From assembly GCA_029941685.1 (NCBI GenBank), contig JAPYTC010000003.1:1-51444 (forward strand): a stretch of DNA of 51,444 bases, read 5' to 3'. How positions within the stretch are numbered: the stretch's first letter is position 1; the number at the start of each line of letters is the position of its first letter. Of this stretch, positions 117 to 36,764 are shown one piece after another. The notes under the pieces were generated by a model, which saw nothing but the letters and a program-made list of their open reading frames with translations, searched no databases and was not told the origin of the DNA. This stretch comes from Planctomycetota bacterium. Lineage in GTDB: Bacteria; Planctomycetota; UBA1135. The position numbers were made by a program, and so were the translations under genes.

Positions 117-146
117 CCGACGACTTAATTGTCGTCGGTTTTTGTT
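117..146. terminator. Bidirectional intrinsic terminator hairpin between tRNA-Phe and the convergent CDS
   Basis: Perfect 8-bp stem CCGACGAC (117-124) / GTCGTCGG (131-138) with loop TTAATT. An A-run lies 5' and TTTTTGTTTTTG lies 3', so it reads as a terminator on both strands. The stop codon of the minus-strand CDS sits in the loop. Confidence 0.75.
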
Positions 147-4372: not shown

Positions 4373-5359
4373 TTGGCCATGTCTGATGTGAACACTACCT
4401 TAACACTCGACGAAGTAGCTGAGCTATATCGTCGTCCGCTGCTCGATTTGGTTTTTGAAGCGGCGCGAATTCATCGTGCGAATCACGATCCGCGCGTGGT
4501 CCAGTGCTCGACTTTGTTATCGATTAAAACTGGCGCCTGCCAAGAAGATTGCAGCTACTGTTCACAATCGGCACACAACAATACCGATGTCGAACGCGAA
4601 AAATTACTCGAGCTCGATACCGTTGTTGATGCGGCAACCGAAGCCAAGCGCGGTGGTGCCGATCGTTTCTGTATGGGCGCGGCATGGCGTCAGGTAAAAG
4701 ACAACACCGACTTCGAACGTGTACTCGAAATGGTACGCCAGGTTAAGGCTCTCGATTTAGAAACTTGCGCGACGTTGGGCATGGTCACTAAAGAGCAAGC
4801 CGAAAAATTACGTGATGCTGGTTTAGATTACTACAATCACAACCTCGACACTTCACCTGAATATTACGGCGAGGTTATTACTACTCGCACCTATGAAGAT
4901 CGTCTGCGAACTTTGGCGGTGGTGCGCAGTGCTGGCATGAAGGTTTGTTGTGGCGGAATTTTAGGCATGGGTGAAAGTGAAGATGACCGCATTGGTTTGA
5001 TTCAACAGCTGGCTATGCAAGATCCTTACCCCGAGTCGGTACCGATCAACACTTTGATTCCGGTGGAAGGAACGCCCTTGGCGGATACTCCGTCGTTGCC
5101 ATGGACTGAACTGTTACGCGCAGTTGCGGTGTGTCGAATCTTGATGCCACAATCGATGGTTCGTCTCTCTGCCGGGCGTTCGGGTATGAGCGAAGAGTCG
5201 CAGGCTTTATGTTTCTTGGCCGGTGCAAATTCGATTTTCCTCGGCGACCAACTTCTTACTGCGCCAAATCGTAGTAAAAACTCTGATGTTGAGTTGTTTG
5301 ACATGCTTGGCCTTGAAGGCATCAATGAAGTTGAGTCCACAGAAACAATCGAAGTGTGA
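4373..5359 (+). CDS. bioB: Biotin synthase
   Basis: 328 aa. Radical-SAM CxxxCxxC motif ([11 protein letters not shown]). [12 protein letters not shown] and [10 protein letters not shown] motifs are typical of BioB. Confidence 0.95.
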
Positions 5360-7140
5360 ATAAAGACTTTCGCAGCGAGCTAAACGAGGTCGCCGCGCGT
5401 TGGCGCGACGCAGGTTTGGAGCGCAAACTTGTCGAGCCAAGCGGTATCGACTTCTCATCGAATGATTACTTAGGATTGTCAAAGAATCCGAGTGTAATTA
5501 AAGCAGCAATTGCGGCCGCTGAAGAATTCGGAGCTGGGGCGCCGTCCGCGCGGTTGCTTAGGGGCAACTACCCCATTCATCGTCAAGCCGAATTAACTGC
5601 TGCACAATTTGTTGGTACCGAAAACGCTTTATTGCTTCCGAGTGGGTGGCAAGCGAATCTGGCTATCGTTACAACTTTAGCAACGCAAGATGATGTGTTG
5701 ATTTGTGACGAACTAGTTCACGCCTCGCTAATTGATGCTTCACGTTTGAGTAAGGCGTGTGTAAAAATATTTAAGCACAACGATCTTGCAGCACTCGAGC
5801 AATGCTTGCAGTTAAGTTCGGCAATGCGCCAACGTTTCATCGTGGTCGAAGACATTTATTCTATGGATGGCGACCGCACACCGCTGCCGGGGATTATTGA
5901 GTTGTGCGAAAAGTACGACGCTTATGTGATTTTAGATTTAGCACATTCAGTTGGTTTGTATCCACCACGACACTTTCAGTCTAAACGGGTGATTACGCGC
6001 ATGGTTACTGGCGGCAAAGCGCTTGGCGTTGGCGGCGGAATCATTTGCGCGAGCGATGACGTGATTAATCATTTAATCAACCATGCGCGGCCTTTTTTGT
6101 TTACTACTGCGGTTCCGCCGGCGACTTGTGGCGCACTACAACGTTCGATGCAGTTGTTGCGTGAACAGCCTGGGTTGTGTGATATCGCACACCAAAACGC
6201 ACTACTATTACGCGAATTGTTAAAAGCTAAGGGCTTCGATTGCCTCGGCGAAGCCCCTATTGTCCCGTTGGTTGTGGGCAGCGCACAGGCAACGATTAAA
6301 GCATCGAATAAGTTAAGTGAGCTGGGCTTTGATGTACGTGCGATTCGTCCGCCGACTGTGGCTGAGGGCTCTAGCCGTTTGCGCATTGTGGTTCACGCCG
6401 ATCACACCACTAAACAAATTAGCGACTTAGCTGATGCTATTGCCCAATGCGTAGTGGTTGATGCCGATGTAAAGGTCGGTAAGCAACGATTAAATGATTT
6501 ACTAGTTGTCGGCACCGACACCGATGTCGGCAAGACGGTTATTTCAGCATTACTGATGCGTGCCGCTGCACGTTACGGCCATGGAGTAAGCTATCTAAAG
6601 CCAATTCAAACTGGTAAAGACAGCGACACTAATGCAGTGCAGCAATTGGCTGAAGCAAACGACTCGTCAATGTCGGCACCCTTAGTTGAGTTACGGCTAC
6701 CTGCTTCAGTTGATCAAGCCGCAGCTGCCGAGGGTGCGCACATCACTATCAACGACGTGCTGCCGAAAGTGCGCCAAGTAATCGCCGACAACGAATTAAC
6801 CGTAATAGAAACGGCTGGTGGCCTGTTGGTGCCTTGGAACAAGAAACAACATCAGGGTGACTTCGCGCAACGCTTAGGGATTGACGCGGTGTTAGTCACG
6901 CGCACCGGATTAGGCACACTAAATCACACTTTGCTCACCATCGAAGCATTGGTAAAACGTCATGTTAAATTGCGCGCGGTATTTATGGTTGGTGACCCAC
7001 ATCGCGAAAATAAAAATAGTATTCAAGCACAGATTCTTGACGTCCCAATTTTTGAATTCCCGTTGTTTAAGAAATTGAGCACTGCTAATTTAGATTTGTG
7101 GCTCGACACCGAAGATTTACAATTCTTATTTAAGAGGTGA
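5356..7140 (+). CDS. bioF/bioD: Fusion protein: 8-amino-7-oxononanoate synthase (BioF, about aa 1-370) plus dethiobiotin synthetase (BioD, about aa 385-594)
   Basis: 594 aa. The N-terminal half has [16 protein letters not shown] and the PLP-lysine context [12 protein letters not shown]. The C-terminal half has the BioD P-loop [18 protein letters not shown] and [11 protein letters not shown]. The GTG start overlaps the bioB stop (GTGA). Confidence 0.88.
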
Positions 7141-8405
7141 TGGCTAGCAACCTACAACAACGCGACGCGAAAGTTTGCTGGCATCCTTTTACGCAACATC
7201 AAATTGACCCGTTGCCGATGCCAGTTGTGTCAGCACACGATGCGACTTTGGTTTTAGAAGATGGCAGCACGCGCATTGATGCGATTTCTAGTTGGTGGTC
7301 GATTTTACATGGCCACTGCCGTCCAGAGTTAGCTGAGGTTTTGGCTGAGCAGGCGCAGTCGCTTGATCACGTTCTGTTTGCCGGATGCACTCACCAGCCG
7401 GCGGTTGAATTAGCCGAGCTGTTGATTGATGTTGCTCCTGATTCTTTATCGCGAGTTTTTTATTCAGACAACGGCTCGACTGCGGTTGAGATTGGGCTAA
7501 AGGCCGCTTATCAATCGTGGGTGCGGCGCGGACAAACACAGCGCACTACTTTTATCGCACTCGAGCATTCTTACCACGGCGATACTTTTGGTGCGATGGC
7601 CTTGGGTGACCCGGTGCCCTTCTTCAGCGAATTCGAACCGTTTTTGTTTGACGTTAAGCGCGTTGCGCCGACAGCCGATAGTTTACGGGCAACTCTCGAG
7701 CAACTAGGGGATCAGGCTTGTGCTTTTATTGTTGAGCCGCTAGTCCAGGGCGCTGCCGGAATGCAAATGCACTCAATTGAGTTTTTGCAAGCTGCCCGCG
7801 AGCTGTGTGACGCATTTGGCATTTACTTTATAGCTGACGAGGTCATGACCGGCTTCGGACGCACAGGTAATTTGTTCGCGTGCCAAACTGCAGGCGTCGA
7901 ACCAGACATCATGGCGGTGGCCAAAGGGTTGAGTGGTGGCATACTTCCGCTATCTGCCACGCTAGTAAGTGAGGACATCTACCAACATTTCCTCGATGAC
8001 GACCGTGCTAAGGCGTTTTTCCATGGCCATACCTTTACCGGCAATCCAATAGGCTGTGCAGTGTCTTTAAGGTCGCTCCAGCTCTGCATCAGCGAACAAA
8101 CTCCGCAACGTCTGCAGAAAATAGGAAATGTGATAGAATGTGCACTTGCGTCTCTGAGTGACCACCCGCGAATTGAAATTAGAAGGTGCGGCGGAATAGT
8201 TGCCATTGAGATAATTACCACTGATGGTGGTTATCTAGCCAGCGCTGGCGACATCCTGCGAAACGCTTGTAGAGAACTAGACGACGTCCTGCTTCGCCCT
8301 TTGGGTAATGTGTTGTATGCAATGCCACCGGCTTGCACCACCGAAGATGAATGTCAGATTATTGCTGATGCAATGATTAAGGTTGTCACACAAGTTGTGC
8401 AATAA
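7137..8405 (+). CDS. bioA: Adenosylmethionine-8-amino-7-oxononanoate aminotransferase
   Basis: 422 aa. CWHPFTQH, SSWWSILHGH, YHGDTFGAM, ADEVMTGFGRTG and AVAKGLSGG (PLP Lys). The start is GTG 7137 or, more likely, ATG 7140 overlapping the bioFD stop (TGATG). Confidence 0.93.
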   Translation: MMASNLQQRDAKVCWHPFTQHQIDPLPMPVVSAHDATLVLEDGSTRIDAISSWWSILHGHCRPELAEVLAEQAQSLDHVLFAGCTHQPAVELAELLIDVAPDSLSRVFYSDNGSTAVEIGLKAAYQSWVRRGQTQRTTFIALEHSYHGDTFGAMALGDPVPFFSEFEPFLFDVKRVAPTADSLRATLEQLGDQACAFIVEPLVQGAAGMQMHSIEFLQAARELCDAFGIYFIADEVMTGFGRTGNLFACQTAGVEPDIMAVAKGLSGGILPLSATLVSEDIYQHFLDDDRAKAFFHGHTFTGNPIGCAVSLRSLQLCISEQTPQRLQKIGNVIECALASLSDHPRIEIRRCGGIVAIEIITTDGGYLASAGDILRNACRELDDVLLRPLGNVLYAMPPACTTEDECQIIADAMIKVVTQVVQ

Positions 8406-8418
8406 CACCAATAAAATC

Positions 8419-10101
8419 ATGACATCACTTAAGTTCAATGAGCTGGGGCTTCCAGCTGCAATGGTCGATTCCTTAGAGAGTTTTGGCTACGAAAACCCGT
8501 CTCCTATTCAGGCCGAGGCGATTCCATATTTACTCGAGAAGCGCGACATCATTGGTCAGGCGCAAACAGGTACGGGTAAAACCGCTGCCTTTGCTTTGCC
8601 GATTTTGGCTAATATCGATTTGAGCAACCGCGTGCCCCAAGTATTGGTGCTGGCGCCAACTCGCGAATTGGCGATTCAAGTTGCTGAGTCATTTCAGAAG
8701 TATGCGCGCTCTTTGCCTGGTTTTCATGTGCTACCAATTTATGGTGGCCAAGCTTACCAACACCAGTTGCGCCCTCTGAAGAAAGGCGTGCACGTTGTTG
8801 TTGGTACTCCGGGACGCGTGCTTGACCATATTAAGCGCGGCACTCTCAAGCTCGACCAACTAACCACTTTGGTTCTTGACGAGGCCGACGAAATGTTGCG
8901 CATGGGTTTCATTGACGATGTTAATTTCGTTCTCGAAAATTGCCCTGACGATCGTCAAATTGCTTTGTTCTCGGCGACTATGCCAAGAGAGATTAAGAAG
9001 ATTGCTGACAAGTATCTCAACTCTCCGGCTGAAGTAAAAATCAAGGCTGTACAAGCTACCGCCGACACCATTAATCAACGGTACCAAATTGTCACTGGTC
9101 GCAAAAAGATTGACGCCCTTGGTCGCTTGTTAGAATTCGAAGAAGTTGACGCAATGATTGTGTTTGTACGTACCAAAAACGCTACCACTATCATTTCCGA
9201 ACAACTCGAAGCCCGCGGATATGCTTCGGCACCACTAAATGGCGATATTCAGCAAGCGCAGCGTGAGCAAACCATCAAGCGCCTAAAGAATGGCGCGCTT
9301 GATATAATTATTGCTACCGACGTTGCGGCGCGTGGCCTTGACGTACTTCGTGTTAGTCACGTAGTTAATTACGATGCGCCGACTGACCCAGAGTCATACG
9401 TGCACCGTATCGGACGCACCGGACGTGCCGGCTGTACCGGTGAAGCAATTTTGTTTGTAACACCTCGCGAAAAGCGTTTGTTACGCATGCTTGAAAAAGT
9501 AACAAGGGCCGACATCAAGCCGATGAAGATGCCGACCACCGATGAAATCAACGAGCAGCGTATCGACCGCTTCAAAAATGAAATTTCTGCGGTTATCGAA
9601 GACGACACGCTTGAATTCAACCTACGCTTGATTGATAGTTACCTGACTGACCACCCAGAAACTGAAGCAGTAAATGTTGCGGCTGCTTTGGCATTTATCG
9701 CGCAAGGGAAAAAGCCGTTGTTGATTTCGAAAACCGAATTAGTGAGAGACGAAAACTTTGCAGCAGAGCGCAACCAACGCGAGCCGCGCGACAGTCGCGG
9801 TCGTGGACGCGAAGATCGAGGTCCGCGTCACGATAAGCGTGGAGGCAAAGTTGAAAAGTCATCAGAAGATGGCATGGAACGCTTCCGAATTGAAATTGGA
9901 CATCGCGATCAAGTGCGTCCAGGGTCTATTGTGGCGGTGATTGCCAAGACTTCTGGCTTGCAGGGCAAGCATATTGGCCGCATAGAAATTTACGACAATT
10001 TTGCAACTGTTGATTTGCCAAAGGGCATGCCGACTGATGTGTTAGACGACTTGAGCTACGTTAAGATTAATAACCGTTCCTTAAAGATGTCCCGCATTTA
10101 G
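8419..10101 (+). CDS. deaD: DEAD-box ATP-dependent RNA helicase (DeaD/CsdA-like) with an RG-rich linker and a DbpA-type C-terminal RNA-binding domain
   Basis: Motifs AQTGTGKT, PTRELA, DEAD, SAT and HRIGRTGRAG, with C-terminal ERFRIEIGHRDQVRPGSIV. I prefer ATG 8419 (MTSLKFNELGL) over the track start 8383, which would overlap bioA. Confidence 0.9.
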   Translation: MTSLKFNELGLPAAMVDSLESFGYENPSPIQAEAIPYLLEKRDIIGQAQTGTGKTAAFALPILANIDLSNRVPQVLVLAPTRELAIQVAESFQKYARSLPGFHVLPIYGGQAYQHQLRPLKKGVHVVVGTPGRVLDHIKRGTLKLDQLTTLVLDEADEMLRMGFIDDVNFVLENCPDDRQIALFSATMPREIKKIADKYLNSPAEVKIKAVQATADTINQRYQIVTGRKKIDALGRLLEFEEVDAMIVFVRTKNATTIISEQLEARGYASAPLNGDIQQAQREQTIKRLKNGALDIIIATDVAARGLDVLRVSHVVNYDAPTDPESYVHRIGRTGRAGCTGEAILFVTPREKRLLRMLEKVTRADIKPMKMPTTDEINEQRIDRFKNEISAVIEDDTLEFNLRLIDSYLTDHPETEAVNVAAALAFIAQGKKPLLISKTELVRDENFAAERNQREPRDSRGRGREDRGPRHDKRGGKVEKSSEDGMERFRIEIGHRDQVRPGSIVAVIAKTSGLQGKHIGRIEIYDNFATVDLPKGMPTDVLDDLSYVKINNRSLKMSRI

Positions 10102-14230: not shown

Positions 14231-16507
14231 ATGCGTCTCATCTCATCCTTACTTTGCGCAATCCTCTTGAGTGGTCAAGTATTCGCCACTTGGTCGATTA
14301 TTGTTGTTAATACCAAAACTCAAGAAATCATTGTGGCGTCAGCAACATGTGTTGAGGCGATTAATTTGCGCGCGTACATTGCCATGCTTGAAGCGCAAGC
14401 GGGCGGCGGGTGCGTGCAATCAATTGGCGCTTCCGCGGTAATGCGCGGTGATGCGAGCGCTATGCTTGCCTTGGGTGTCCCACCGGAAGAAATCTTGGAG
14501 GCTATGGCAGCTTACGACAACTTGCACCAACTTCGGCAATATGGTTTTGTAGATATTGCCGGACGTGCTGCAACGTTCACCGGAACTCAGTGTGGTGACT
14601 GGGCTGGCGGTCTAACTGGGCGAAGCGGAGATTTGGTTTACGCGATTCAAGGCAATGTTCTTACGGGGCAGCCAGTCATCGACGCTGCAGAACAAGCACT
14701 GATCAACACCGTGGGTGACTTGTCGCAAAAAGTAATGGCGGCAATGGAAGCCGCGCGCGACATGGGCGGCGACGGCCGTTGTTCATGCAGCAACACTGCG
14801 CCAACATCATGCGGCGCCCCTCCGCCTTCATTCACCAAAAGCGCGCACGTCGGGTTTCTGATTTCCGCGCGCCCCGGAGATCATCCCTATTGCGACAACT
14901 TTGCCTGCGCAAAAGGTGATTTGTATTTAGCAATAAACAAAGCGAGCCTCACCGCCGCCGATCCTGATCCAGTAAGTGAAATGCGCATTAAATTTGACTC
15001 GCTACGCCAAGCATTGGTGGCGCGGCCTGATGCATATTTATCAACCGTTTTCTCTTACTCGAATAAAGTAAGTGCGGGAAGTACTGCGCCGCAAGCTTTT
15101 GTTTTAGATTTATCTGATGTCGATGGCAACTTACTCACCAGTGGTGGCTCGGCGATCACTCTTGATCACACCTCGCGTTCTGCTGGTCTAGCGATTTTGC
15201 ACCAAGTGACCGACCACAACAATGGGACCTACACCGTCGAAGTCATGCCCGGCACAGAAACCGGTGTCGATGAATTACTCTTCGTCGTTGACGACGGCAT
15301 CCGCGCAGTGACTTTATGGCCGCCTACTACTCTGGTACACGAGCAGCCATTAACCCCGTTGACGGCTGAACAAGATATTAACGGTTTACAAAACATCGAT
15401 GTCACTTTTGCGCGCTTCACCGAAAACGGACTCCGTGCATGGGTTGTCGGCGACCAGCAGCAAGGCGGCGGGCTTGAATTTCTTGAGTTGACTCGCGCCG
15501 ATTGGCAAACACCGTTTACTGTCACTGCAAATTGGGGCATCATCAACTTTCCGCTCGCCAGCTTAAAATCCTTTTGGATGAGCGACGATGGTTTACGCAT
15601 GACTCTTGCTGCCGAGCACGTCAACGGCAGCTCGATTGACTTATTCTCTACTTCGCGTAACAGCATCTACGACGATTTTGCTCAACCTCTGCGCGATCGA
15701 GACTTGAATACCTCAGGACTTGAAAGCTCTCCTTTCTTGAGCGCTAATGAATTAGAAATTTGGTTTCATGCCAACCGCGGTAACGGGATTTCATTTTGGC
15801 ATGCAACGCGTCAATCTAAAGATGCACGTTGGTACCCACCGCAACGCTACCTTGAATCCGGTATCAACGAATTCAGCAGCCACCCTACTTTTGCCAACAA
15901 TGGCACCGAATTTATTTTCGCACAACGCTTAGCTTCGTCATCAGGATATAGTCTATTCCATGCTTCGCGTGACGAGAACGGCACGGTTGGCCCATACCGC
16001 TTGCTTAGTGGAATTTCGCCAACGCGCACCTCGCAGCGCATTCCGTTAAACATCGTCACTGAGCCTAACAGTAACCGACGAGCTCTATGCGCGTTAACAA
16101 ACGGCACTGTGCGTCAGGCCTTCTGTGCCGACGACACCTTGTCTGTAAGCCCGGACTTCATCTCTTTAAGCGCCGGAGGCACTTTTGCTTTTCAAATTGA
16201 TGCCGGTTCAAGCTTTGCGAACGGTTCTTTCACTTTGTTCCCAGGCGACTTGCTTTCGAGTGCCACGGCGGTCGGAGTGATTCCTATCAGTCTCAACCGA
16301 TATTACTCACGGCAAATGAAAAATGCTCTAACGAACGCCGGTGGTTCGTTGTCGGCATCTGGCTCACAGTCCGCCTCATGGACGGTCCCTGCCGGGATGA
16401 ACCTGCCACCGCAACTCATTGACCGTAATATCGGATTTAGTTACATCGCAAAAAGTGGTGGAGATGCGTTAATAAGTCAAGCTGTTGTAATTAGGGTTTT
16501 ACCTTAA
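14231..16507 (+). CDS. Secreted DUF1028 (Ntn-hydrolase fold) domain protein with a large C-terminal beta-rich region containing TolB/PD40-like repeats
   Basis: 758 aa. Signal peptide ...SGQVFA is followed directly by TWSIIVV. DUF1028 pattern RQYGFVDIAGRAATFTGTQCGDWAG ... QGNVLTG ... MGGDGRCSC. The C-terminal part has repeats such as SSPFLSANELEIWFHANRG and SHPTFANNGTEFIFAQR. Confidence 0.7.
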   Translation: MRLISSLLCAILLSGQVFATWSIIVVNTKTQEIIVASATCVEAINLRAYIAMLEAQAGGGCVQSIGASAVMRGDASAMLALGVPPEEILEAMAAYDNLHQLRQYGFVDIAGRAATFTGTQCGDWAGGLTGRSGDLVYAIQGNVLTGQPVIDAAEQALINTVGDLSQKVMAAMEAARDMGGDGRCSCSNTAPTSCGAPPPSFTKSAHVGFLISARPGDHPYCDNFACAKGDLYLAINKASLTAADPDPVSEMRIKFDSLRQALVARPDAYLSTVFSYSNKVSAGSTAPQAFVLDLSDVDGNLLTSGGSAITLDHTSRSAGLAILHQVTDHNNGTYTVEVMPGTETGVDELLFVVDDGIRAVTLWPPTTLVHEQPLTPLTAEQDINGLQNIDVTFARFTENGLRAWVVGDQQQGGGLEFLELTRADWQTPFTVTANWGIINFPLASLKSFWMSDDGLRMTLAAEHVNGSSIDLFSTSRNSIYDDFAQPLRDRDLNTSGLESSPFLSANELEIWFHANRGNGISFWHATRQSKDARWYPPQRYLESGINEFSSHPTFANNGTEFIFAQRLASSSGYSLFHASRDENGTVGPYRLLSGISPTRTSQRIPLNIVTEPNSNRRALCALTNGTVRQAFCADDTLSVSPDFISLSAGGTFAFQIDAGSSFANGSFTLFPGDLLSSATAVGVIPISLNRYYSRQMKNALTNAGGSLSASGSQSASWTVPAGMNLPPQLIDRNIGFSYIAKSGGDALISQAVVIRVLP

Positions 16508-17057
16508 TCATAATCGCTTCAAAATCTTCGGACTCTAAATAGCCTTGTAGCCAATTATTTAAGAACGACCAAGACTGTTCATCAAACCACGTTATGTCGG
16601 CAATTCTAAACTGCCGCACAAACGGTGCGATGCAAATGTCGGCTGCGCCAAACTCATCTCCAGATAAATATTGTTGCTTTGACAGCAACTCATTGAGCCT
16701 TAATAAAAAAACACTCCCCGCCGCACGGTGTTTATTTGAATCAACATCTTCATATCGAGTTGCGTATTTATAACGATCTAGGTTGTGCTTAAATTCTCCG
16801 TCACATTCACCGACTAATTGCAAAGCGTGCTCATCAACACTCATTGCCCACTTTACTATTTCAATACTTTCGTCGATTACCACACCGTCACTTAACACCA
16901 GCACCGGCACTGTTCCTTTCGACGATACCGCGTACAATTCTGGCGGACGATTGCTCAACTCAATTTCTTGAATTTCGACATCGATACTAGACAAGCGCAA
17001 CGCCAACCTGGCGCGCATTGCATACGGTCAGCGTCGAAACGAGAATAACTTATGCAT
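16491..17057 (-). CDS. Glutathione S-transferase / glutaredoxin-2-like protein with an in-frame TGA (17028-17030) at the catalytic-Cys position; candidate selenoprotein, or a nonsense-disrupted gene
   Basis: The track ORF (16491..17018) starts at MRARLAL, inside the thioredoxin-fold N-domain. Reading upstream in the same frame gives ATG CAT AAG TTA TTC TCG TTT CGA CGC TGA CCG TAT GCA ATG, i.e. MHKLFSFRR-[TGA]-PYAMRARLAL. As I recall them, Cys homologues of this family read ..LYSFRRCPYAMRAR... The C-terminal GST domain is intact (LDRYKY, PFVRQF). Confidence 0.6.
16992..17020 (-). promoter_or_regulatory. Candidate bacterial SECIS-like stem-loop downstream of the in-frame TGA
   Basis: mRNA sequence CAAUGCGCGCCAGGUUGGCGUUGCGCUUG. 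Pairs are C8-G36, A9-U35 and A10-U34, then a U11 bulge, then GCGC/GCGC, a 3-nt bulge and GCC/GGC. The apical loop is AGGUU. The loop GGU falls 23-25 nt from the U of UGA, close to the G23/U24 position in E. coli fdhF. Confidence 0.4.
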
Positions 17058-17179
17058 TAACTGACCTTGGCTATTAAGGCCGAGCGATAGGAGTAGTTGG
17101 TTTCACTCATGCCATATCTTAGCGCCGGTAAAACCAAGATAATCCTGTCGATACAAGCAAGGGCAATATATCATGAAAT

Positions 17180-18043
17180 CTACTGCGCTCTTTTCGGCAC
17201 ACTATTCTGCTGAGCTCCCAAATAGATGCCGAAAAATACCAACAAAGCTCCGATTATCTCTATTTGTCCAGGCCGGCCATCGCCGGCAAAAACACCAAAA
17301 AACATCGCGAATATCACGCCGACGAAACCAATTTGTGTAGCGCGCGTCGCGGTGTGATATCGCAACCCGTGCGTCAAGCACACCTGACCACCCTGCGTGC
17401 CCACGCCCAATGCCAGCAACCACCACCACTCGATGCCGGCCGGCAAACGAAAGTCATTTACACCAAGCGCTAGGCATAGAGGAATCGAGACTAAAGGAAA
17501 TGCCAGTACGATAATAAGTGGTTTTTCGGTTTTACCTAAAATGCGGACTAAGGAGTATGCAATCGAAGAAAAGAAAGCCGTCAATAGGCCAAAAATGATG
17601 CCGTCTATTGGCGCGTTGGCAGAGAAACCTTTAATGAAGGCAATGCCCACTATCGCCAACAATATGGATATGATGCGTTGCGTGCTGTGTTTTTCTTTTA
17701 GGACTACAATGCCGATGATCGCCGCAAAAATCGGCGTGGTGTTATAGATTGTCACCGAAGTGCCGAGTGGCAATCGCGCAATTGCTTCAAAGTAGCACAC
17801 CAGTCCACCGAAACCAAAAATCGAACGCAATAACAACATCCACTTGCGGTTGGCGCGCAACTGAATACCGGCGGCACGCAAAGCGTAAATGGTCATCACC
17901 ACCGAGATCAAACTGCGAAAGAAAACTTTTTCGAACGCCGGAATCTCTGGCAGCATTTTTGCCGACAGCGCCATCACCGAAAAGGACGCCGCGGATGCGA
18001 CCATCCATAAGGTGCCCTGATTAAATCCCTTTACCGTTTTCAT
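17180..18043 (-). CDS. DMT-superfamily (EamA-like) membrane transporter
   Basis: About 10 predicted TM helices in two EamA-like halves. The start is uncertain: track 18100, ATG 18043 or ATG 18004. The upstream gene ends at 18021, so 18043 gives a 23-nt overlap and 18004 gives none. Confidence 0.8.
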   Translation of the reverse strand: MKTVKGFNQGTLWMVASAASFSVMALSAKMLPEIPAFEKVFFRSLISVVMTIYALRAAGIQLRANRKWMLLLRSIFGFGGLVCYFEAIARLPLGTSVTIYNTTPIFAAIIGIVVLKEKHSTQRIISILLAIVGIAFIKGFSANAPIDGIIFGLLTAFFSSIAYSLVRILGKTEKPLIIVLAFPLVSIPLCLALGVNDFRLPAGIEWWWLLALGVGTQGGQVCLTHGLRYHTATRATQIGFVGVIFAMFFGVFAGDGRPGQIEIIGALLVFFGIYLGAQQNSVPKRAQ

Positions 18044-22035: not shown

Positions 22036-22785
22036 ATGGCATTCTTCACATCTACTGCGCACACAAACTCTAACGCCGTCGTCAATTCGGCTGCCAGCGA
22101 CACTCTCGAACAACGCCTAGCCTTTCTGCGCAAAGTCTACACCCTATTCAGCTGTTCCATGGTCGTATGGATGGGCTCTGCCTTGTGGGTATCTACCAAC
22201 GACAAAATGCTCGGCATGGTGATGGGTATTTTCGGCAGTGGTTTCATTGGCCTGTTAGTCTTCATGGCAGCCTTATTCGGATTGCTACACCTAACCCGCA
22301 GCACTGCCCCGCCAATCAATTACATCGGCCTCGCTTTGTTTAGCATTCTCGAAGGATTCGTAACGGCACCATTAATAAAATACTCGCTTATGGCAACCGG
22401 TGGCGAAGGGCTAGCGATGACCGACCCAAGCAATGTCGTGTTGCAAGCATTCGTCCTCACAGGAATGGTGTTCGGTGGCTTAACGACCTATGCATTAACC
22501 ACAAAGCGCGATTTTAGTTTTTTAGGGGGCGCATTATGGATGGGCTTCTTCTTACTGTTCGGCCTTGGCATTCTTGCGATGTTCGGCATCGGCGAGTCAA
22601 TGCAAATGGGCTGGGGCATCTCTGTGGCATGGGTTTTGTTAATGGGCGGCTTTGTGTTATATGACACACAAAACATCATGAAACGTTACCCGTCAAACAT
22701 GGCGGCAGCCGCTGCGGCAACTCTCATGATTGACTTTATCATTATGTTTCAGCGCATCTTGATGTTACTTTCACGCCGCGATTGA
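22036..22785 (+). CDS. Bax inhibitor-1/YccA family membrane protein
   Basis: 249 aa with 7 TM helices. FLRKVYTLF near the N-terminus and the LYDTQNI motif near the C-terminus. Confidence 0.85.
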   Translation: MAFFTSTAHTNSNAVVNSAASDTLEQRLAFLRKVYTLFSCSMVVWMGSALWVSTNDKMLGMVMGIFGSGFIGLLVFMAALFGLLHLTRSTAPPINYIGLALFSILEGFVTAPLIKYSLMATGGEGLAMTDPSNVVLQAFVLTGMVFGGLTTYALTTKRDFSFLGGALWMGFFLLFGLGILAMFGIGESMQMGWGISVAWVLLMGGFVLYDTQNIMKRYPSNMAAAAAATLMIDFIIMFQRILMLLSRRD

Positions 22786-24944
22786 TACTCACAGCATCCA
22801 TTCTCCTCTGCGCCCAGCAATTTGTTGGCGCCTGGAGTTTCGCTGGCCCATATAGCGAAGCCAAAGAGATTGCTGCTATTGAAAAAATAATTGCCGGTGG
22901 CGGCGCCCTGAATGGATTCAAGGCTCATGAAGCCAAAGCGTTTTATGGCCATTTTGATGTTGCTTATGATCTTGGACAAGAATCCGTTGCTTCAGTTTTT
23001 TACCAACACAAAATAATCGCCAAAGAAGACAAGGTATGGCGGGTGCGAATGGGCAGCGACGACGGATTGAAGGTTTGGTTAAATGGCGAACTAATCCTTC
23101 AGCACGAAGCAGAGCGTGGCACTAACCCATCCGAAGAACATCTACTGCTCCCATTAGTCACAGGTGATAATTATCTAGCAATCCGCGTCATTAATACTGG
23201 CGGTACGTGGTCGTTTTCCATTAACGACGAAAAGCTCGCTAACCCTATTGAGGTCGACCGCGCCATTCGCCGTGGCACCGATCACTTAATTCAAGCGCAA
23301 GCGCTTGATGGTTCTTGGGGCTTCCACAAAGGCGCCTACCGCAACGGTGCGACCTCACTCGCTGTTTACACCCTGTTAAGTTGCGGAATTAGTCCGCAAT
23401 CCGCAACGGTGCAAAAGGGATTAAGTTTTATTAGCGCGACTTATCCCGAAAAAACTTACTCGGCCGGTTGTCAGCTCATGGCACTTGCCGAGCTAAACGA
23501 CCCGCAGTACTACGAGCAAATGGAGGTCATCGTTTCGGACCTCATCTCCTGGCAAGAGCGCAATGGCATGTGGGCCTACCCCGGCGGCCACTGGGATTTG
23601 TCTTGTACCCAATTTGCGATTCTCGGCCTATACGCGGCAGCAAACATCGGCATCGATGTTCCGGATAAAGTTTGGCGTGACGCCATTGAGGGCATTTTAT
23701 TGTGTGAAACCGAGATTAAAGGCAAAGCCGCGCGGCGCATCTCGGGCTTCCGCTACCACCCTGGCTACTCGGCTACCGGCACCTTGGCGATGACAGCCGC
23801 GGCAGTAGCGTCGATTGAAATTTGCCGGCAGCAACTCGGCGGAAAATATCCGCAAAAGTTACGCAAGAAAGCTGCGTCCGCAGCGAAAAGCGGTTTGGCT
23901 TGGATCACACAAAATTTTACTGTCGCGCGCAACTTCGGCTTTAATGGCCACCGCTACTACGCGATCTATGGTCTCGAACGAGTTGGCTCCATTCTCGATC
24001 TCAGCAAGTTCGGCGAGCACGATTGGTACAATGAGGGCGCAGGTTTCTTACTCGATGCGCAGCACACGAATGGCGGATGGCCTAATACCACCGTGGACTT
24101 CGCTGATACTCTATATTCACTCCTGTTCTTAAAGCGCGCAACCGCTCAGGCAGCGATTACGGGCGAATACGAGGTTAGATCCAGCAACGAAGTTGTGTCC
24201 GAAAATTTAGATGGACGCCTGCGTTTGCACGTAAATAATGGCGATCCAGTGGTCATGTGGACTGCACTGCCTGATGGCCTAAAGACTACTGCGGTAACTT
24301 ATGCGATAAGGCGTCACGCTAACGCCCCGTGGCAGCCTATTGGCGAGTCCTCCGCAAACCGCTTTGCGTATACGCATTCGTTCCCTGGCGTCGGCAAATG
24401 GTTGGTGCGCGCCGAATGCGTCGCTGACGGCCAACAGGTTAATTCTACCGATGTGGTTTACTACTACGTACCAAACCTTCGGCCAGATGACACCTCCTAT
24501 GGCGATGACGAATTCGAAAACTTAATTTCTGTGAGCCGGGCGACCGTAACAACTTCGACAGAAGTGGCTGACTACTTCGGAGGCAAACAGCTCGTTGATG
24601 GCAGCCTAAGCACACGCTGGTTCTGCAAAGTTGATGACGCGCTACCAGAGTTTACTATTTCGATGCGCAGGTCAGCGAAGGCTACTAAACTTTTGTTTAG
24701 TCATATCTACACGAGTCCGTCCAACATCGCAGACCGACCTCGACCTACCGAAGTCGAAGTTTATATCAATCACGAAAAAGACCCGATTGTGGTTAGCATT
24801 AATCCCGATCAATCTCAAAAAACAATTTATGCTTTCGAAAAGAAGAGGAGTATTACTAAGTTGCGTGTAGTAATTACGAAGGTTGTCGACGGCACTCTCG
24901 GAAAAGCCTCTATCGGCTTTAGTGAAATAGAACTGCAGCGCTAA
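22782..24944 (+). CDS. Secreted multidomain protein: PA14-like beta-sandwich, prenyltransferase/squalene-oxidase-like repeats, and a C-terminal discoidin (F5/8 type C)-like domain
   Basis: 720 aa with a TTG start overlapping the upstream stop (TTGA). WRVRMGSDDGLKVWLNGELIL (PA14-like). Repeats QAQALDGSWG, SWQERNGMWAYPGG and DAQHTNGGWP. C-terminal GGKQLVDGSLSTRWF. Confidence 0.6.
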   Translation: MILTASILLCAQQFVGAWSFAGPYSEAKEIAAIEKIIAGGGALNGFKAHEAKAFYGHFDVAYDLGQESVASVFYQHKIIAKEDKVWRVRMGSDDGLKVWLNGELILQHEAERGTNPSEEHLLLPLVTGDNYLAIRVINTGGTWSFSINDEKLANPIEVDRAIRRGTDHLIQAQALDGSWGFHKGAYRNGATSLAVYTLLSCGISPQSATVQKGLSFISATYPEKTYSAGCQLMALAELNDPQYYEQMEVIVSDLISWQERNGMWAYPGGHWDLSCTQFAILGLYAAANIGIDVPDKVWRDAIEGILLCETEIKGKAARRISGFRYHPGYSATGTLAMTAAAVASIEICRQQLGGKYPQKLRKKAASAAKSGLAWITQNFTVARNFGFNGHRYYAIYGLERVGSILDLSKFGEHDWYNEGAGFLLDAQHTNGGWPNTTVDFADTLYSLLFLKRATAQAAITGEYEVRSSNEVVSENLDGRLRLHVNNGDPVVMWTALPDGLKTTAVTYAIRRHANAPWQPIGESSANRFAYTHSFPGVGKWLVRAECVADGQQVNSTDVVYYYVPNLRPDDTSYGDDEFENLISVSRATVTTSTEVADYFGGKQLVDGSLSTRWFCKVDDALPEFTISMRRSAKATKLLFSHIYTSPSNIADRPRPTEVEVYINHEKDPIVVSINPDQSQKTIYAFEKKRSITKLRVVITKVVDGTLGKASIGFSEIELQR

Positions 24945-27900
24945 TCGCCAGCACCAGCGAATCCGCTGCGACTGTGGTCTTGGTATTCGCGAATTAATTT
25001 ATAAAAGTCTTTCGGTAGCCCAAGTCGCGTTCTTCGCAGGCGTTTGGCATAGCGAATAATGCCAACAGGGTCAGCAAAAAACAACACTGGTGACGGCCAT
25101 CCGCCGATTGATTTAGTTATCTCCAAATCATTTTCGGTTTTATTGTGCTTAGCAAACACGGGTCGCTGCGGAATATCTAACTGACCCAGTGAGGCCATGT
25201 CGAAATCATTAGGCAACAATATTGTCAGTCCCTGAGCTGGAGCATCAATTTCCCAATTGTCCAAAAACTGAGTTAGATTTTTCTGCAAATGCTCGATGTC
25301 GGTTTTTGCAAACAACATTATTGCCGTTCCAGATCCTGACAATGGCACTCCGTTCATCGGCAAGCCGACTAGCTGACGCAATTTAAATTCTCCGGTACGC
25401 TGACTGTCAAAGCCCCACCCTTGTGCATGAGCGAACTGACCATGGGCCAAACGGTCGAGACGCTGCACTTTAACATCGATTACACGCATTGCACCGGTGG
25501 TCGTGTAAAACCCGATGCGTCCATAAATAGGGCGACTGTTTAATAATGTAGTACGTTGCACCAACTTGCCGTCAAAATAAATTTCTGCACTAGGCCCATC
25601 GACAATAATTTCAAAACCAAAAGTAGTGCCGGTCTTGTCAAATCCGACCCCGCCACGCTTGGCTCCTTCACGTACGAACGATGAGGTGAGCGACCATGAC
25701 AAGCCAGCGTTGGATTCCGTTTCTTCGGTTTCACCGACTGAATAACGGTAATCGCCACCTGAAAATGAAAGTCGTGTATTGCGGTCGCGGCGATTCCAGC
25801 CGAAGACAATACCGCCATTAAAAAAAGTGGTGGTTTGTTCAACCTTGCCGCTAATTTTATAACGACCTGGCTGCTGCCACTCATCGGAAAACACTACCGC
25901 TTGCCGCTGGAAAGCAGTGCGATCCATGGTGCCCGTGTCGGTGCGTGCCTTATCACGACCTACGTGTAAGTCACCGAGTAATTCGTCTAGAAACCACATG
26001 CCAACACTACGCTTTTTATCTAAGCCATTCAATGCAAACTCTCGCCACTCGCCACTACTTAAAGCAACTGCTGGTTGCACAAAAGGTGACTGCTGTAGTT
26101 CGTTTAGGTCGACGAATGTTAGGGAGTTATTATTCGTTAGCCCAAAAGTTGTCGCATAACGTTGGTGATCTGAGGCTAGCGCCGCCGCAGTGACCAGATA
26201 CTGCTGTCTAGCAAAGTCGTTTGATAATTGTGCTAAGCCATCAAGCCACTCGATTGTTTTCGGCAAGTTTTTCGCCAGTGGGTTTGTTGAGTCATCACGC
26301 GCGAACTCTCGCAATGGCGAGTTGTAGCGCGGCCAATGTTGCAAGCACCACGCAGCGCGTGACTGATGAGTATCGTTTAGTAACCGTGCAAAGTCATCAA
26401 GCACGGCGTCGCTTGGCTCATCAACAACTAGAGCCCATTGATAAGCCAAATCAGCAGCACTGTTATTTACTTGATGCAATAACAAGGCTGCAACACGCGC
26501 TTGATCTTGACCAAACCACGGCTCAGTGCGGCCACGTAACCATGACCACGTTGGCTCGTCGTAAATCACTTCAGCACTTTCACCAGCAGGTCCACTAGGA
26601 GAAAAACGATTCGTCCAATCAGCTAATTCTTTCCAGTAAAACCCGCCAAGAAATTTACCATAGTCCGCTGCGAATTCTATTAAATCTGCGGGGCGTCCAC
26701 CTTTGCCATCACAAAAGTACTCTTCAAAATGAGCTGCCGCCGAAACTTTAGAACGGCGCAAACTGTTTTGATAAGGCTCTAAGTTGTCGGCGAATAATTT
26801 ATCGCCACCCTCTTCGAAGCCATTCCAGTAACGCAAGTAAATATACAGTGCATATCCGGCGGAGTAATTATCGCGGTACTCTTCGATATCGCCGCTCAGC
26901 AACTCACTTAGTTTATTGAAACCGCCATAGCCTTTTTGGGATACATCAAACATTGTGCCGAAACTAACGTAGTCCTCGACGAATTGTTCATCAATCATGA
27001 ACCCATAGTTTCCACCCGTCCATACGGCTTTACCTTCGGCTAGCCAAGCTGGTAGCCCGCCATAAGTCGCTCCGTCAAAACGGTGAGTAAGTTCGTGCGT
27101 CAAGCCGTGACCCAATCCGGGTATGGTGCCGATGGTGAATTTAAAGGTGGTGATGTCTCCACCCTGGAAGCCGCCTACCCAATAGAAGCCAGCGCCTTCG
27201 GACTCGAGGCCGAATGATTCGGGAACGATACGCACTGTGCCTTGACGGCCATTAAATGGGTCTTGTCCGTAAAAGTTGAGCAACCGCTTATGATGCAATT
27301 CGATGGTAGTTGCCGTACCAAGCAAAGTGTTGTATCCGCAAGATGTTTCTACTCGGTACAACCCGGTTGGCGAAATACACACGCCAGGGTTTTCGAAGGA
27401 TGAATGCCGCAATGTAAACTCACGCTGCTGGTCAATATCAAAATTTTCTAACTCTTCGATAGTGTAAACGCGCACCGAATCAAGCATCTCAGCACGCACT
27501 TCGCCAAGAACAGTTCCTGCCAATTTCTTTTCGCGACTAATGTTTGCTGGAGCCGGCCCTTTCAAATCTTTAAAGCCCGCCTGCGCCGCCATTCCGTTGA
27601 TACAACGTGCGAATTTTAGAGCCAAACCATTGTCGTTCTTGCTTTGGGCAATGCGCATTTCTTTTGCCATCGCTTTAGCCACATCCTTTTGCGATTCACG
27701 ACTTATTTTTAAAATGGGAGATAAGTTTTCTGGCAGCAATTTGGTCAACGACGGATTGTGCTGTGCCATTGTTGCAAGCAAGTCGCCGCTCCAGTTTGCC
27801 ATCAACCAATCACCTACCTTTCTACCATGCAACATTCGATCGCGAAATTTCACCAACTCGCGAAATGCTGCGCCACGCTGACTGGCCAAAAGCGAAATTT

Positions 27901-28198
27901 TCTCATGCGGGTGTTCTTTGTACCGGCCACGGTCATCGGCTTTGGCAGAATATAAATAATTTACCCATAAAGTTTGTAAGTCAAGATTGTCGCCACACGA
28001 TTCAATTAATAGCGGCACCAACTGGGCGGCGTCTGCCCCATTACTTAAAGCAAAAGAAAAATGACCGTACGCCTCAGCGTTATCGCCACCACTTAGTGCG
28101 CGGCGTCCGGCATCAATGCTCAAATCAACAGTTGATAGTTGTGCGTCAGCAGACGCGCAAATACAAACACAACATAGAGCGCTAGCAAAGAAGTTCAT
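24941..28198 (-). CDS. Large secreted protein with an HExxH zinc-metallopeptidase-like motif and a DUF1080-like (concanavalin/LamG-type) domain
   Basis: 1085 aa with a signal peptide MNFFASALCCVCICASADA. GHGLTHELTHRFDG (HExxH). The later segments GGIVFGWNRRDRN, FEIIVDG...IYFDGKLV and GRIGFYTTTGAMRVIDVKV resemble DUF1080. Confidence 0.55.
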   Translation of the reverse strand: MNFFASALCCVCICASADAQLSTVDLSIDAGRRALSGGDNAEAYGHFSFALSNGADAAQLVPLLIESCGDNLDLQTLWVNYLYSAKADDRGRYKEHPHEKISLLASQRGAAFRELVKFRDRMLHGRKVGDWLMANWSGDLLATMAQHNPSLTKLLPENLSPILKISRESQKDVAKAMAKEMRIAQSKNDNGLALKFARCINGMAAQAGFKDLKGPAPANISREKKLAGTVLGEVRAEMLDSVRVYTIEELENFDIDQQREFTLRHSSFENPGVCISPTGLYRVETSCGYNTLLGTATTIELHHKRLLNFYGQDPFNGRQGTVRIVPESFGLESEGAGFYWVGGFQGGDITTFKFTIGTIPGLGHGLTHELTHRFDGATYGGLPAWLAEGKAVWTGGNYGFMIDEQFVEDYVSFGTMFDVSQKGYGGFNKLSELLSGDIEEYRDNYSAGYALYIYLRYWNGFEEGGDKLFADNLEPYQNSLRRSKVSAAAHFEEYFCDGKGGRPADLIEFAADYGKFLGGFYWKELADWTNRFSPSGPAGESAEVIYDEPTWSWLRGRTEPWFGQDQARVAALLLHQVNNSAADLAYQWALVVDEPSDAVLDDFARLLNDTHQSRAAWCLQHWPRYNSPLREFARDDSTNPLAKNLPKTIEWLDGLAQLSNDFARQQYLVTAAALASDHQRYATTFGLTNNNSLTFVDLNELQQSPFVQPAVALSSGEWREFALNGLDKKRSVGMWFLDELLGDLHVGRDKARTDTGTMDRTAFQRQAVVFSDEWQQPGRYKISGKVEQTTTFFNGGIVFGWNRRDRNTRLSFSGGDYRYSVGETEETESNAGLSWSLTSSFVREGAKRGGVGFDKTGTTFGFEIIVDGPSAEIYFDGKLVQRTTLLNSRPIYGRIGFYTTTGAMRVIDVKVQRLDRLAHGQFAHAQGWGFDSQRTGEFKLRQLVGLPMNGVPLSGSGTAIMLFAKTDIEHLQKNLTQFLDNWEIDAPAQGLTILLPNDFDMASLGQLDIPQRPVFAKHNKTENDLEITKSIGGWPSPVLFFADPVGIIRYAKRLRRTRLGLPKDFYKLIREYQDHSRSGFAGAGD

Positions 28199-36612: not shown

Positions 36613-36764
36613 GGACTCAAATATAGCATAAAAGCACGTATTTATCGTACAAAGTCCCAAATATGTTGGTATATTTATTGGAACGCGATTGGGTTAACGC
36701 CGTCGAAGAATTATCACCTAGCGTTACTGCAAAACGCATTCATTTCCATTCCACCAAATAAATC

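Follow-up and report, generated by a model that had tools for sequence, protein, structure and literature searches.

The stretch of DNA analysed here (the window) is 51,444 nucleotides long; all coordinates are positions in this 51-kb window, and the gene under study lies on its minus strand. A single frame runs from ATG (17057..17055) through CAT AAG TTA TTC TCG TTT CGA CGC, then TGA, then CCG TAT GCA ATG, and ends with TAA at 16493..16491, giving 188 codons in total. In the RNA numbering used throughout, the U of UGA is nt 1. The features of the locus are as follows.

16491..17057, minus strand: full coding sequence of the predicted GST-like selenoprotein, 188 codons plus TAA with selenocysteine (Sec) at codon 10, from translation, Pfam and orthologues.
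17065..17068, minus strand: possible Shine-Dalgarno sequence AAGG, weak, 7 nt upstream of the ATG, as read from the sequence.
17055..17057, minus strand: true start codon ATG (M1 of MHKLFSFRR-U); ATG-CAY is kept in all orthologues.
17028..17030, minus strand: in-frame TGA, the predicted Sec codon of residue 10, at the position where the C-P-Y-A motif has its catalytic Cys.
16491..17018, minus strand: truncated open reading frame called by gene finders, 175 amino acids beginning MRARLAL, which lacks β-strand 1 and the active-site residue.
16991..17021, minus strand: extended hairpin (nt 10–40) in the RNAfold structure of the window alone; its outer four pairs are not kept in relatives.
16996..17017, minus strand: conserved SECIS-like hairpin core (nt 14–35), with stems 14–17/32–35 and 18–22/26–30 and a 1-nt bulge at nt 31.
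17006..17008, minus strand: apical triloop G23 G24 U25, the GG coming from the rare Arg codon AGG of residue 17.

The same truncated 175-amino-acid call is found in NCBI, JGI, ENA and Logan records, because the TGA is taken for a stop and the gene callers drop the first 13 residues. The initial annotation had proposed that the missing N terminus is encoded just upstream, as MHKLFSFRR-TGA-PYAMRARLAL, and translation of the minus strand confirmed it. The accompanying claim, that the annotated frame lacks β-strand 1 and the active-site turn, agrees with the Pfam profiles: GST_N_3 and Glutaredoxin start at residue 3–4 of the extended product, so the N terminus of the thioredoxin fold is complete only with the 13 upstream residues. 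The position of the start is fixed by in-frame stops that lie two to four codons upstream in three orthologues (L007, L010 and L016). Where the window gene has AAGG ahead of the start, orthologues of the L012 type have AGGAAG.

The extended product gave Pfam matches above cutoffs to GST_N_2 (3.1e-16), GST_N_3 (5.2e-15) and GST_C_2 (3.3e-08). Its best matches among PDB sequences were Cys-type GSTs, with E values of 1e-10 to 1e-4, the best of them (1e-10 to 1e-6) aligned mostly over residues 3–70; the enzymes compared were omega GST (human GSTO1, 1eem), plant DHAR, lambda GST, E. coli Grx2 and SspA. By an ungapped offset from the PDB-match coordinates, residue 10 falls on GSTO1 Cys32, DHAR1 Cys20 and Grx2 Cys9, which we take to be the catalytic residues. 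The window protein shares with the Cys-type GSTs the C-P-[FY]-x-x-R motif (here U10-P-Y-A-M-R15), the cis-Pro loop TVPVL and the E-S pair. It would differ from them in its nucleophile, predicted to be Sec instead of Cys, and the similarity is mainly in the N-terminal domain. All matches to NCBIfam equivalogs were far below cutoff, and no named GST class was assigned.

Thousands of homologues have an invariant SFRR-C-PYAMRAR motif whose Cys occupies the position of the TGA. The earlier placement of the TGA at the catalytic Cys is thus borne out by the alignment, in which this Cys is invariant among full-length relatives. The Cys homologues use TGC or TGT, and TGA is present in all genes of the Sec clade. 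In an alignment of 29 sequences (19 Sec and 10 Cys forms), L4, S6–R9, [C/U]10 and P11–R17 are invariant, and likewise the GSH-site motifs T49-V-P-V-L53 and E63-S64. Sec would sit at the start of helix α-1, in the place of the Cys in the C-P-Y-A of the homologues. Two Cys forms, L018 (TGC) and L020/21 (TGT in L020), are nested within the Sec clade, and in L018 the hairpin stem contains a C-A mismatch.

Every close relative that was read as DNA has retained the TGA. Its carriers comprise the window gene and seven further protein clusters at 64%–70% identity, and include five GTDB species-representative MAGs (L022–L026), mostly labelled Planctomycetota. It is also present in two far more divergent marine lineages (L031/L042 and L033), and it occupies the same codon in all of the ∼19 distinct Sec-type genes, close or distant. 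All 15 of the 15 orthologous coding sequences are exactly 188 codons long, with no indels or frameshifts. Pooled pairwise pN/pS was 0.092 for codons 2–9, where pS was 0.69 (near-saturated), 0 for codons 11–13 and 0.294 for codons 14–188. The nine codons upstream of the TGA are under stronger purifying selection than the annotated reading frame.

These values bear directly on the alternative raised in the initial annotation, a nonsense mutation at the TGA that would make the locus a pseudogene or a gene whose product, if any, is a protein of 175 amino acids restarting from Met14 at 17018. Such a reading would be in keeping with the public gene calls, every one of which is the 175-amino-acid frame, with the ATG found four codons after the TGA and with a relic (L035) that has the same TGA and is truncated after 27 codons. 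Against it stand the retention of the TGA in ∼19 distinct genes down to ∼40% identity, the low pN/pS of the upstream codons (0.09 at the pS given above), the conserved start ATG, the 15 coding sequences without indels or frameshifts and the covariation of the hairpin described below. Nor is Met14 a dedicated restart codon, because it is invariant in the Cys homologues too. We reject the nonsense-mutation reading of the TGA and regard a pseudogene or truncated product as extremely unlikely.

An error of sequencing or assembly, the true codon being TGC or TGT, would require a change of one base only, and close forms with just these Cys codons exist (L018 and L020, respectively). Eight independent same-species assemblies nevertheless agree at every base between −60 and +30 relative to the annotated start, TGA included, and dozens of contigs, drawn from various species and projects, also have the TGA. 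The independent assemblies refute this explanation, and we consider its probability negligible.

Downstream of the UGA, RNAfold predicts a hairpin of 13 pairs with two 1-nt bulges over nt 10–40 (17021..16991), close to the interval of 16992..17020 proposed initially. Relatives share only the upper nine pairs (nt 14–22/26–35; 17017..16996); the outer four belong to the window alone, and most relatives have 10–40 and 11–39 unpaired. The GGU assigned to nt 23–25 in the initial annotation is correct as G23 G24 U25. The apical loop itself was recovered in altered form: RNAfold closes the pair A22-U26 and leaves the loop GGU, and the AGGUU described earlier corresponds to this pair being open. Arg17, which supplies the GG, is always encoded by AGG, the rarest Arg codon of the genome, accounting for 15 of the 896 Arg codons (1.7%) in the long reading frames of the window.

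Across 14 sequences, 94.4% of the cells in the alignment of the stem were paired, as against 14%–60% in slid controls. Not all of this pairing is independent evidence, because two Ala codons force G19 C20 and G28 C29. Compensatory changes were observed in seven cells at three pairs in the same 14 sequences; the pairs 18–30 (CG/UA/AU) and 21–27 (CG/UA) covary at synonymous third positions, and the covariation score was reached by none of 500 shuffles. When synonymous codons were resampled 20,000 times with the codon usage of this genome, the nine pairs together with a G[G/U] loop arose in 0.09% of cases, and the native minimum free energy (MFE) of nt 10–40 was −12.8 kcal/mol, compared with a resampled mean of −7.5. 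In a dinucleotide-shuffle test, the hairpin alone was not more stable than the shuffles (z = −0.56). The significance of the hairpin comes from the comparative evidence and the synonymous-codon null, and not from its stability relative to shuffles.

The hairpin was compared with the bSECIS consensus (PMC13188914, Fig. 2), which sets four constraints: loop and stem size, a loop G, spacing from the UGA, and MFE. The loop GGU is 3 nt long, or 5 nt if A22-U26 is open (3–9 nt in the consensus), and the upper stem is 5 bp (18–22/26–30; 4–16 bp in the consensus), with 4 bp more beyond the 1-nt bulge. The consensus apex is N1-G[G|U]-N-N2, in which N1 pairs with N2 and a G falls within the first two loop positions; here it appears as A22-G23-G24-N25-U26, and A22, G23, G24 and U26 are invariant in 14 of 14 Sec-type sequences. 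G23 is separated from the UGA by 19 nt (nt 4–22), within the 16–37 nt of the consensus. The 48-nt segment has an MFE of −13.3 kcal/mol, below the threshold of −7.5 kcal/mol, and values for the other Sec forms lie between −11.7 and −16.6 kcal/mol. The hairpin agrees with the consensus on all four counts, as expected from the bacterial SECIS geometry that had been suggested for it.

Rfam returned no match, to SECIS or to any other family, at the gathering threshold on the whole window or at E values up to 10 on 16900..17100, and the hairpin sequence is unrelated to that of any Rfam SECIS family. Bacterial SECIS elements are, to our knowledge, gene-family specific and mostly absent from Rfam. Agreement with SECIS models comes from the published constraints and from covariation, not from an Rfam match. 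Like the SECIS of the E. coli fdhF type, the window hairpin is a stem-loop that directly follows the UGA within the coding sequence and has a small apical loop with G at its first positions (G23 G24 here, G23 U24 in fdhF). It differs in having as its loop a very small triloop with an A-U closing pair, and in carrying its single bulged U at nt 31, on the 3′ side, whereas that of fdhF is on the 5′ side.

A conserved UGA followed by a hairpin might also be decoded without Sec, through near-cognate reading by Trp, Cys or Arg, through a reassigned code or through coupling to a 9-codon upstream reading frame. A hairpin could in principle stimulate generic read-through or coupling of this kind, and Sec machinery was not seen in the DNA examined (the window and related loci). 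The codon aligns, however, only with a redox-active Cys, making the classic Sec/Cys pair, and the geometry is of the SelB type: 19 nt beyond the UGA comes a small loop containing G23 G24. The genetic code is not reassigned, because TGA elsewhere works as a normal stop, closing 6 of 32 long reading frames in the window and the L001 orthologue itself. The upstream peptide is not an independent leader, because it is homologous to β-strand 1 of the same domain. Decoding without Sec is therefore very unlikely in our judgement.

Taken with the sequence evidence, Sec remains the preferred reading of the UGA: the minus strand of 17057..16491 very probably encodes a 188-residue GST-like selenoprotein, with UGA-encoded Sec in place of the catalytic Cys. 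The candidacy put forward in the initial annotation has gained support from the conservation of the TGA, from selection, from the covarying hairpin and from a catalogued homologue. In translation, the hairpin located 11–33 nt downstream of the UGA would act as a bacterial SECIS, formed by the upper stem CGCCA/UGGCG and the loop GGU with GG at nt 23–24. It would bring SelB-GTP-Sec-tRNA(Sec) to the ribosome, where the UGA would be read as Sec and not as termination. The product may be a glutathione-dependent thiol transferase or reductase of the Cys type (omega/lambda/DHAR/Grx2-like). Its selenolate would attack a glutathionylated or oxidised substrate, a selenenyl-sulfide with glutathione would form, and a second GSH would then recycle the enzyme.

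The machinery for such decoding was sought in the window and in ∼334 kb of related loci, equivalent to ∼1% of a genome, and neither selA, selB and selD nor tRNA-Sec was found there; the DNA of relatives searched consisted of flanks of 20 kb or less around the gene. ARAGORN gave no tRNA-Sec in the window and 24 loci, and a Pfam scan gave no SelA, SelB or SelD among the 32 largest window reading frames. A tblastn search of the window and 50 loci (∼385 kb) with E. coli SelD and SelB produced no match. Among TGA-bridged reading frames across the window, the GST gene was the sole credible selenoprotein gene.

Full sets of sel genes have been reported in four Planctomycetes, with no GST selenoprotein among them (PMC4807772). 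Another study (PMC1794560) mentions the phylum only in passing, and it does not appear in the other general selenoproteome papers examined. The group of marine Planctomycetota-labelled MAGs probably uses selenium. That this clade decodes UGA by another hairpin-dependent route, without canonical SelB and SelC, is most improbable. On a milder reading the clade has the machinery, and the gene might be the first selenoprotein assigned to pelagic Planctomycetota. If true, the two natural Sec-to-Cys reversions would already be at hand for comparing catalysis by Sec with catalysis by Cys.

The window gene is a new member of a selenoprotein family that has been known, together with its Sec position and hairpin, since 2005, and it leaves knowledge of selenoproteins unchanged. 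Its practical value lies in annotation. The public 175-residue "glutathione S-transferase" calls lack the active site, and NCBIfam has no model able to rescue the truncated call. The ∼19 Sec forms, the two nested Cys reversions and the covarying minimal hairpin could seed a family-specific SECIS/selenoprotein model.

Prokaryotic GST-like selenoproteins were described in the Sargasso Sea selenoproteome (Zhang, Fomenko & Gladyshev, 2005; PMC1088965), and the same family appears in the GOS study of 2008 (PMC2398784) and in reviews (PMC9312934; PMC13188914), according to which it is known from bioinformatics only and its functions are uncharacterised. In the supplement of the 2005 study, two "Glutathione S-transferase" selenoproteins, AACY01575427 and AACY01615117, have the motif …FRRuP[YW]AIRAR…. 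AACY01575427, which reads MEYPILYSFRRuPYAIRARLAL…, has 41% identity to the window protein over 144 residues (E 3e-33), and its Sec aligns with residue 10. The window gene resembles these two entries in GST fold (COG0625/PF13409), in the position of Sec in F-R-R-U-P-[YW]-A-[MI]-R-A-R and in the register of the hairpin, with the upper stem at nt 18–22/26–30 and a GGN triloop. The Sargasso entries are AT-rich fragments, whereas the window gene comes from a clade of marine Planctomycetota-labelled MAGs. The proteins of this clade are compact, at 188 residues, and carry a deletion of ∼14 residues after helix α-2 relative to most homologues. The two remaining "GST" entries of the Sargasso set (…VTuPWVQRAV…) are from another GST subfamily.

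The called ORF is the sole piece of the gene in the ORF list and begins within a longer frame. The features concerned are:

17057..16491, minus strand: CDS of the predicted GST-like selenoprotein, one frame of 188 codons from ATG(17057) to TAA (16493..16491)
17030..17028, minus strand: in-frame TGA, codon 10, between CGC and CCG codons
16491..17018, minus strand: mechanically called ORF, 175 aa
17017..16996, minus strand: conserved hairpin core (nt 14-35), pairing common to Sec forms (TGA at codon 10)
17007..17009, minus strand: invariant Arg17 codon AGG, source of the loop GG

The start region on the minus strand reads ATG(17057) CAT AAG TTA TTC TCG TTT CGA CGC TGA CCG TAT GCA ATG(17018) CGC GCC AGG TTG GCG, and conceptual translation of 17057..16491 gives MHKLFSFRR*PYAMRARLAL…. 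With Cys put at the TGA, a profile search matched the product to GST_N_2 (3e-16), GST_N_3 and GST_C_2, and weakly to Glutaredoxin. The N-domain profiles begin aligning at residue 3-4 of the extended product, which indicates that the gene call cuts off 13 residues belonging to the thioredoxin fold.

Among 5.8 billion proteins searched, thousands of full-length relatives were found, all with …SFRR-C-PYAMRAR…; the close relatives P0003 (188 aa) and P0002 are full length with Cys. The nearest eight clusters (64-97% identity; 175 aa each, one 169 aa) all start at MRARLAL and thus share the truncation of the window gene call. Upstream of every truncated relative, the DNA reads ATG CAY AMN YTN TWY TCN TTY MGN MGN TGA CCN TAY GCN ATG. 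In a genome scan, 5/5 species-representative MAGs (65-68% identity; labels: Planctomycetota for two, Myxococcota for one, "uncultured bacterium" for two) carried TGA. In metagenomes, a search with a degenerate DNA pattern brought up two TGA lineages at much greater divergence, L031/L042 (194 aa) and the AT-rich L033 (about 212 aa). Distant proteobacterial homologues have TGY at the aligned codon. The initial annotation had proposed that the missing N terminus of the fold is encoded upstream in frame, and that the TGA aligns with a Cys, and had suggested looking for orthologues with the same TGA; the profile starts and frame, the full-length relatives and the TGA-bearing loci agree with it on each point. 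In the relative's locus L001, DUF1028, MltA and esterase genes lie on one side and EamA, asparaginase and GH3 genes on the other, as in the window, indicating that the genes are orthologues. Sequencing error at the TGA is ruled out by eight independent assemblies whose DNA, TGA included, is identical to that of the window from -60 to +30 around the annotated start. Locus L023 (JBLINB010000036.1) is labelled Myxococcota, yet its GST 5′ region matches that of L016 exactly over the ∼120 nt read (codons −7 to 34) and it groups with Planctomycetota-labelled MAGs; it may be a mislabelled or chimeric bin.

The initial annotation also raised a nonsense mutation, leaving a pseudogene or a product restarting downstream. 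The upstream codons behave as translated sequence: all 15 distinct CDSs have exactly 188 codons without indels, and pooled pairwise Nei-Gojobori pN/pS is 0.092 for codons 2-9 (pS = 0.69), 0 for codons 11-13 and 0.294 for codons 14-188, the annotated ORF. Arg8 is encoded by five different codons and is always Arg. The start codon is fixed by three lineages that have an in-frame stop 2-4 codons ahead of the ATG. Constant length, low upstream pN/pS and fixed start contradict a dead leader or pseudogene. A reassigned genetic code is likewise excluded, since TGA ends 6 of the 32 long ORFs in the window and the L001 orthologue itself stops at TGA, making it an ordinary stop here.

The hairpin downstream of the TGA agrees on every count with the bacterial SECIS consensus, tabulated from PMC13188914.

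Window hairpin and the bacterial SECIS consensus
Apical loop: required 3-9 nt; window 3 nt
Upper stem: required 4-16 bp; window 5 bp, plus 4 bp past the bulge
G in the first two loop positions, N1-G[G|U]-N-N2: required; window A-GGU-U
UGA-to-loop spacing: required 16-37 nt; window 19 nt
MFE: required -7.5 kcal/mol or lower; window -13.3 kcal/mol

No Rfam model matches the hairpin, which is read as a limitation of the library and not as evidence against a SECIS element.

"Glutathione S-transferase" is one of 15 new selenoprotein families from the Sargasso Sea, with four sequences (PMC1088965). The family reappeared in GOS as 12 Sec forms versus 1,036 Cys homologues (PMC2398784), and is listed in reviews of 2022 and 2026 (PMC9312934, PMC13188914). 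The 2005 supplementary entries include AACY01575427 (MEYPILYSFRRuPYAIRARLALSYMN…) and AACY01615117 (…YTFRRuPWAIRARMAL…) (PMC1088965). AACY01575427 shares 41% identity with the window protein (E 3e-33), and its Sec aligns with the TGA codon. The DNA of this entry (TGA CCA TAC GCA ATA CGA GCT AGG CTA GCT) folds into the same hairpin, in which pairs 18-30 and 21-27 are A-U and U-A. This makes the window gene a further member of a described family and not a new kind of selenoprotein.

Counting from UGA, whose U is nt 1, every Sec form can pair C18-G19-C20-C21-A22 with U26-G27-G28-C29-G30 around the loop G23-G24-N25. Beyond the bulged nucleotide 31, the stem extends through U14-G15-C16-G17 and U32-G33-C34-G35; the outer four window pairs (nt 10-13/37-40) are not conserved in relatives. 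In an alignment of 14 distinct sequences, including the two Sargasso entries, pairing holds in 94.4% of cells. Pair 18-30 is variously C-G, U-A or A-U and pair 21-27 C-G or U-A, with seven doubly changed cells at three pairs. None of 500 shuffles attained the observed covariation score or percentage paired, and sliding the 3′ partner reduced pairing to 14-60%. Covariation falls on synonymous third positions, in Arg15/Ala19 and in Ala16/Leu18, and so cannot result from constraint on the protein. Since two Ala codons dictate G19 C20 and G28 C29, and the window hairpin is unimpressive against a plain dinucleotide shuffle (z = -0.56), synonymous-codon resampling was used as the null (codons drawn as used in the 32 long ORFs of the window; 20,000 samples). 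The nine pairs plus G[G/U] loop arose in 0.09% of resamples, and the native MFE of -12.8 kcal/mol lies in the best 2.4% of them (mean of all resamples -7.5). AGG at Arg17 is fixed in 15 clade CDSs (Sec and Cys forms) and five further Sec-type sequences of the hairpin alignment. No Arg codon is rarer in the long ORFs of the window (15/896), and distant Cys homologues have CGC or CGA at this position. The fixation of AGG in every Sec-form gene is a clear case of RNA structure outweighing codon bias.

Two Cys forms of the compact, 188-residue clade (TGC/TGT; L018 3001..3567 and L020 1904..2470) are nested separately among Sec forms in a neighbour-joining tree without bootstrap. This suggests two independent Sec-to-Cys switches, which would fit the dynamic Sec/Cys exchange described in bacteria (PMC1794560). 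L018 has gained a C21-A27 mismatch in the stem, consistent with relaxed hairpin constraint after Sec loss. The 228-aa call of P0002 for L020 probably reflects an over-extended start. At L035 (7541..7630) lies a relic copy, probably what is left of a decayed selenoprotein gene: MDKFPILYSFRR-TGA-PYAMRARMSIVRTNFRV-stop keeps the TGA but has only 27 codons, Arg17 is CGG and the hairpin is unable to form.

Among solved structures, the protein matches SspA, omega-class GSTs, DHARs, TDR1 and Grx2 best, mostly over the N-domain. By offset from match coordinates, residue 10 falls on the catalytic residues GSTO1 Cys32, DHAR1 Cys20 and Grx2 Cys9, in line with the likeness to omega-class GST and Grx2 drawn initially. 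All 29 sequences aligned share U/C10-P-Y-A-M-R, the cis-Pro loop TVPVL and E63-S64, which points to a predicted Cys-type GST chemistry, in which thiol transfer or reduction would proceed via a mixed selenenyl-sulfide with glutathione. All NCBIfam equivalogs score far below cutoff for the window protein, which leaves it without assignment to a named GST class.

The full Sec machinery has been described for some Planctomycetes (PMC4807772), making the trait plausible in the phylum. No selA/B/D was found among the window's 32 large ORFs, no tRNA-Sec in the window or 24 loci, and no tblastn match to E. coli SelD and SelB in about 385 kb; as the DNA searched amounts to about 1% of one genome and flanks syntenic with it, the outcome is uninformative either way. 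The comparative evidence is hard to explain unless UGA is decoded, and the gene is very probably a selenoprotein with UGA read as Sec. The candidate of the initial annotation is supported, its SECIS-like hairpin by the consensus and by covariation across 14 sequences. The gene is of value chiefly for correcting annotations and for the clean comparative case it offers of a minimal SECIS within a coding region.

At their 3′ ends, the GST gene and a convergent 758-aa DUF1028/Invasin_D3 gene (14231..16507) share 17 nt (16491..16507), as they do in orthologous loci L001, L007, L010, L012, L014 and L015. In L001, a cytochrome cd1-like gene (Cytochrome_CBB3 + Cytochrom_D1) and a Bact_hydrolase gene (7382..9544) lie between the EamA gene and GST; in the window (17058..17180) the two are adjacent, without this insertion. 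For five large window ORFs (608-1085 aa), Pfam gives no match at E up to 1e-5:

125..1951, minus strand: Pfam-less large ORF
22782..24944, plus strand: Pfam-less large ORF
24941..28198, minus strand: Pfam-less large ORF
34813..36660, minus strand: Pfam-less large ORF
43473..45509, minus strand: Pfam-less large ORF

Large uncharacterised proteins are typical of Planctomycetota. A biotin synthesis cluster (4373..8405) encodes a BioB-like radical SAM protein, BioA and an unusual BioF-BioD fusion (Aminotran_1_2 + AAA_26, 594 aa).
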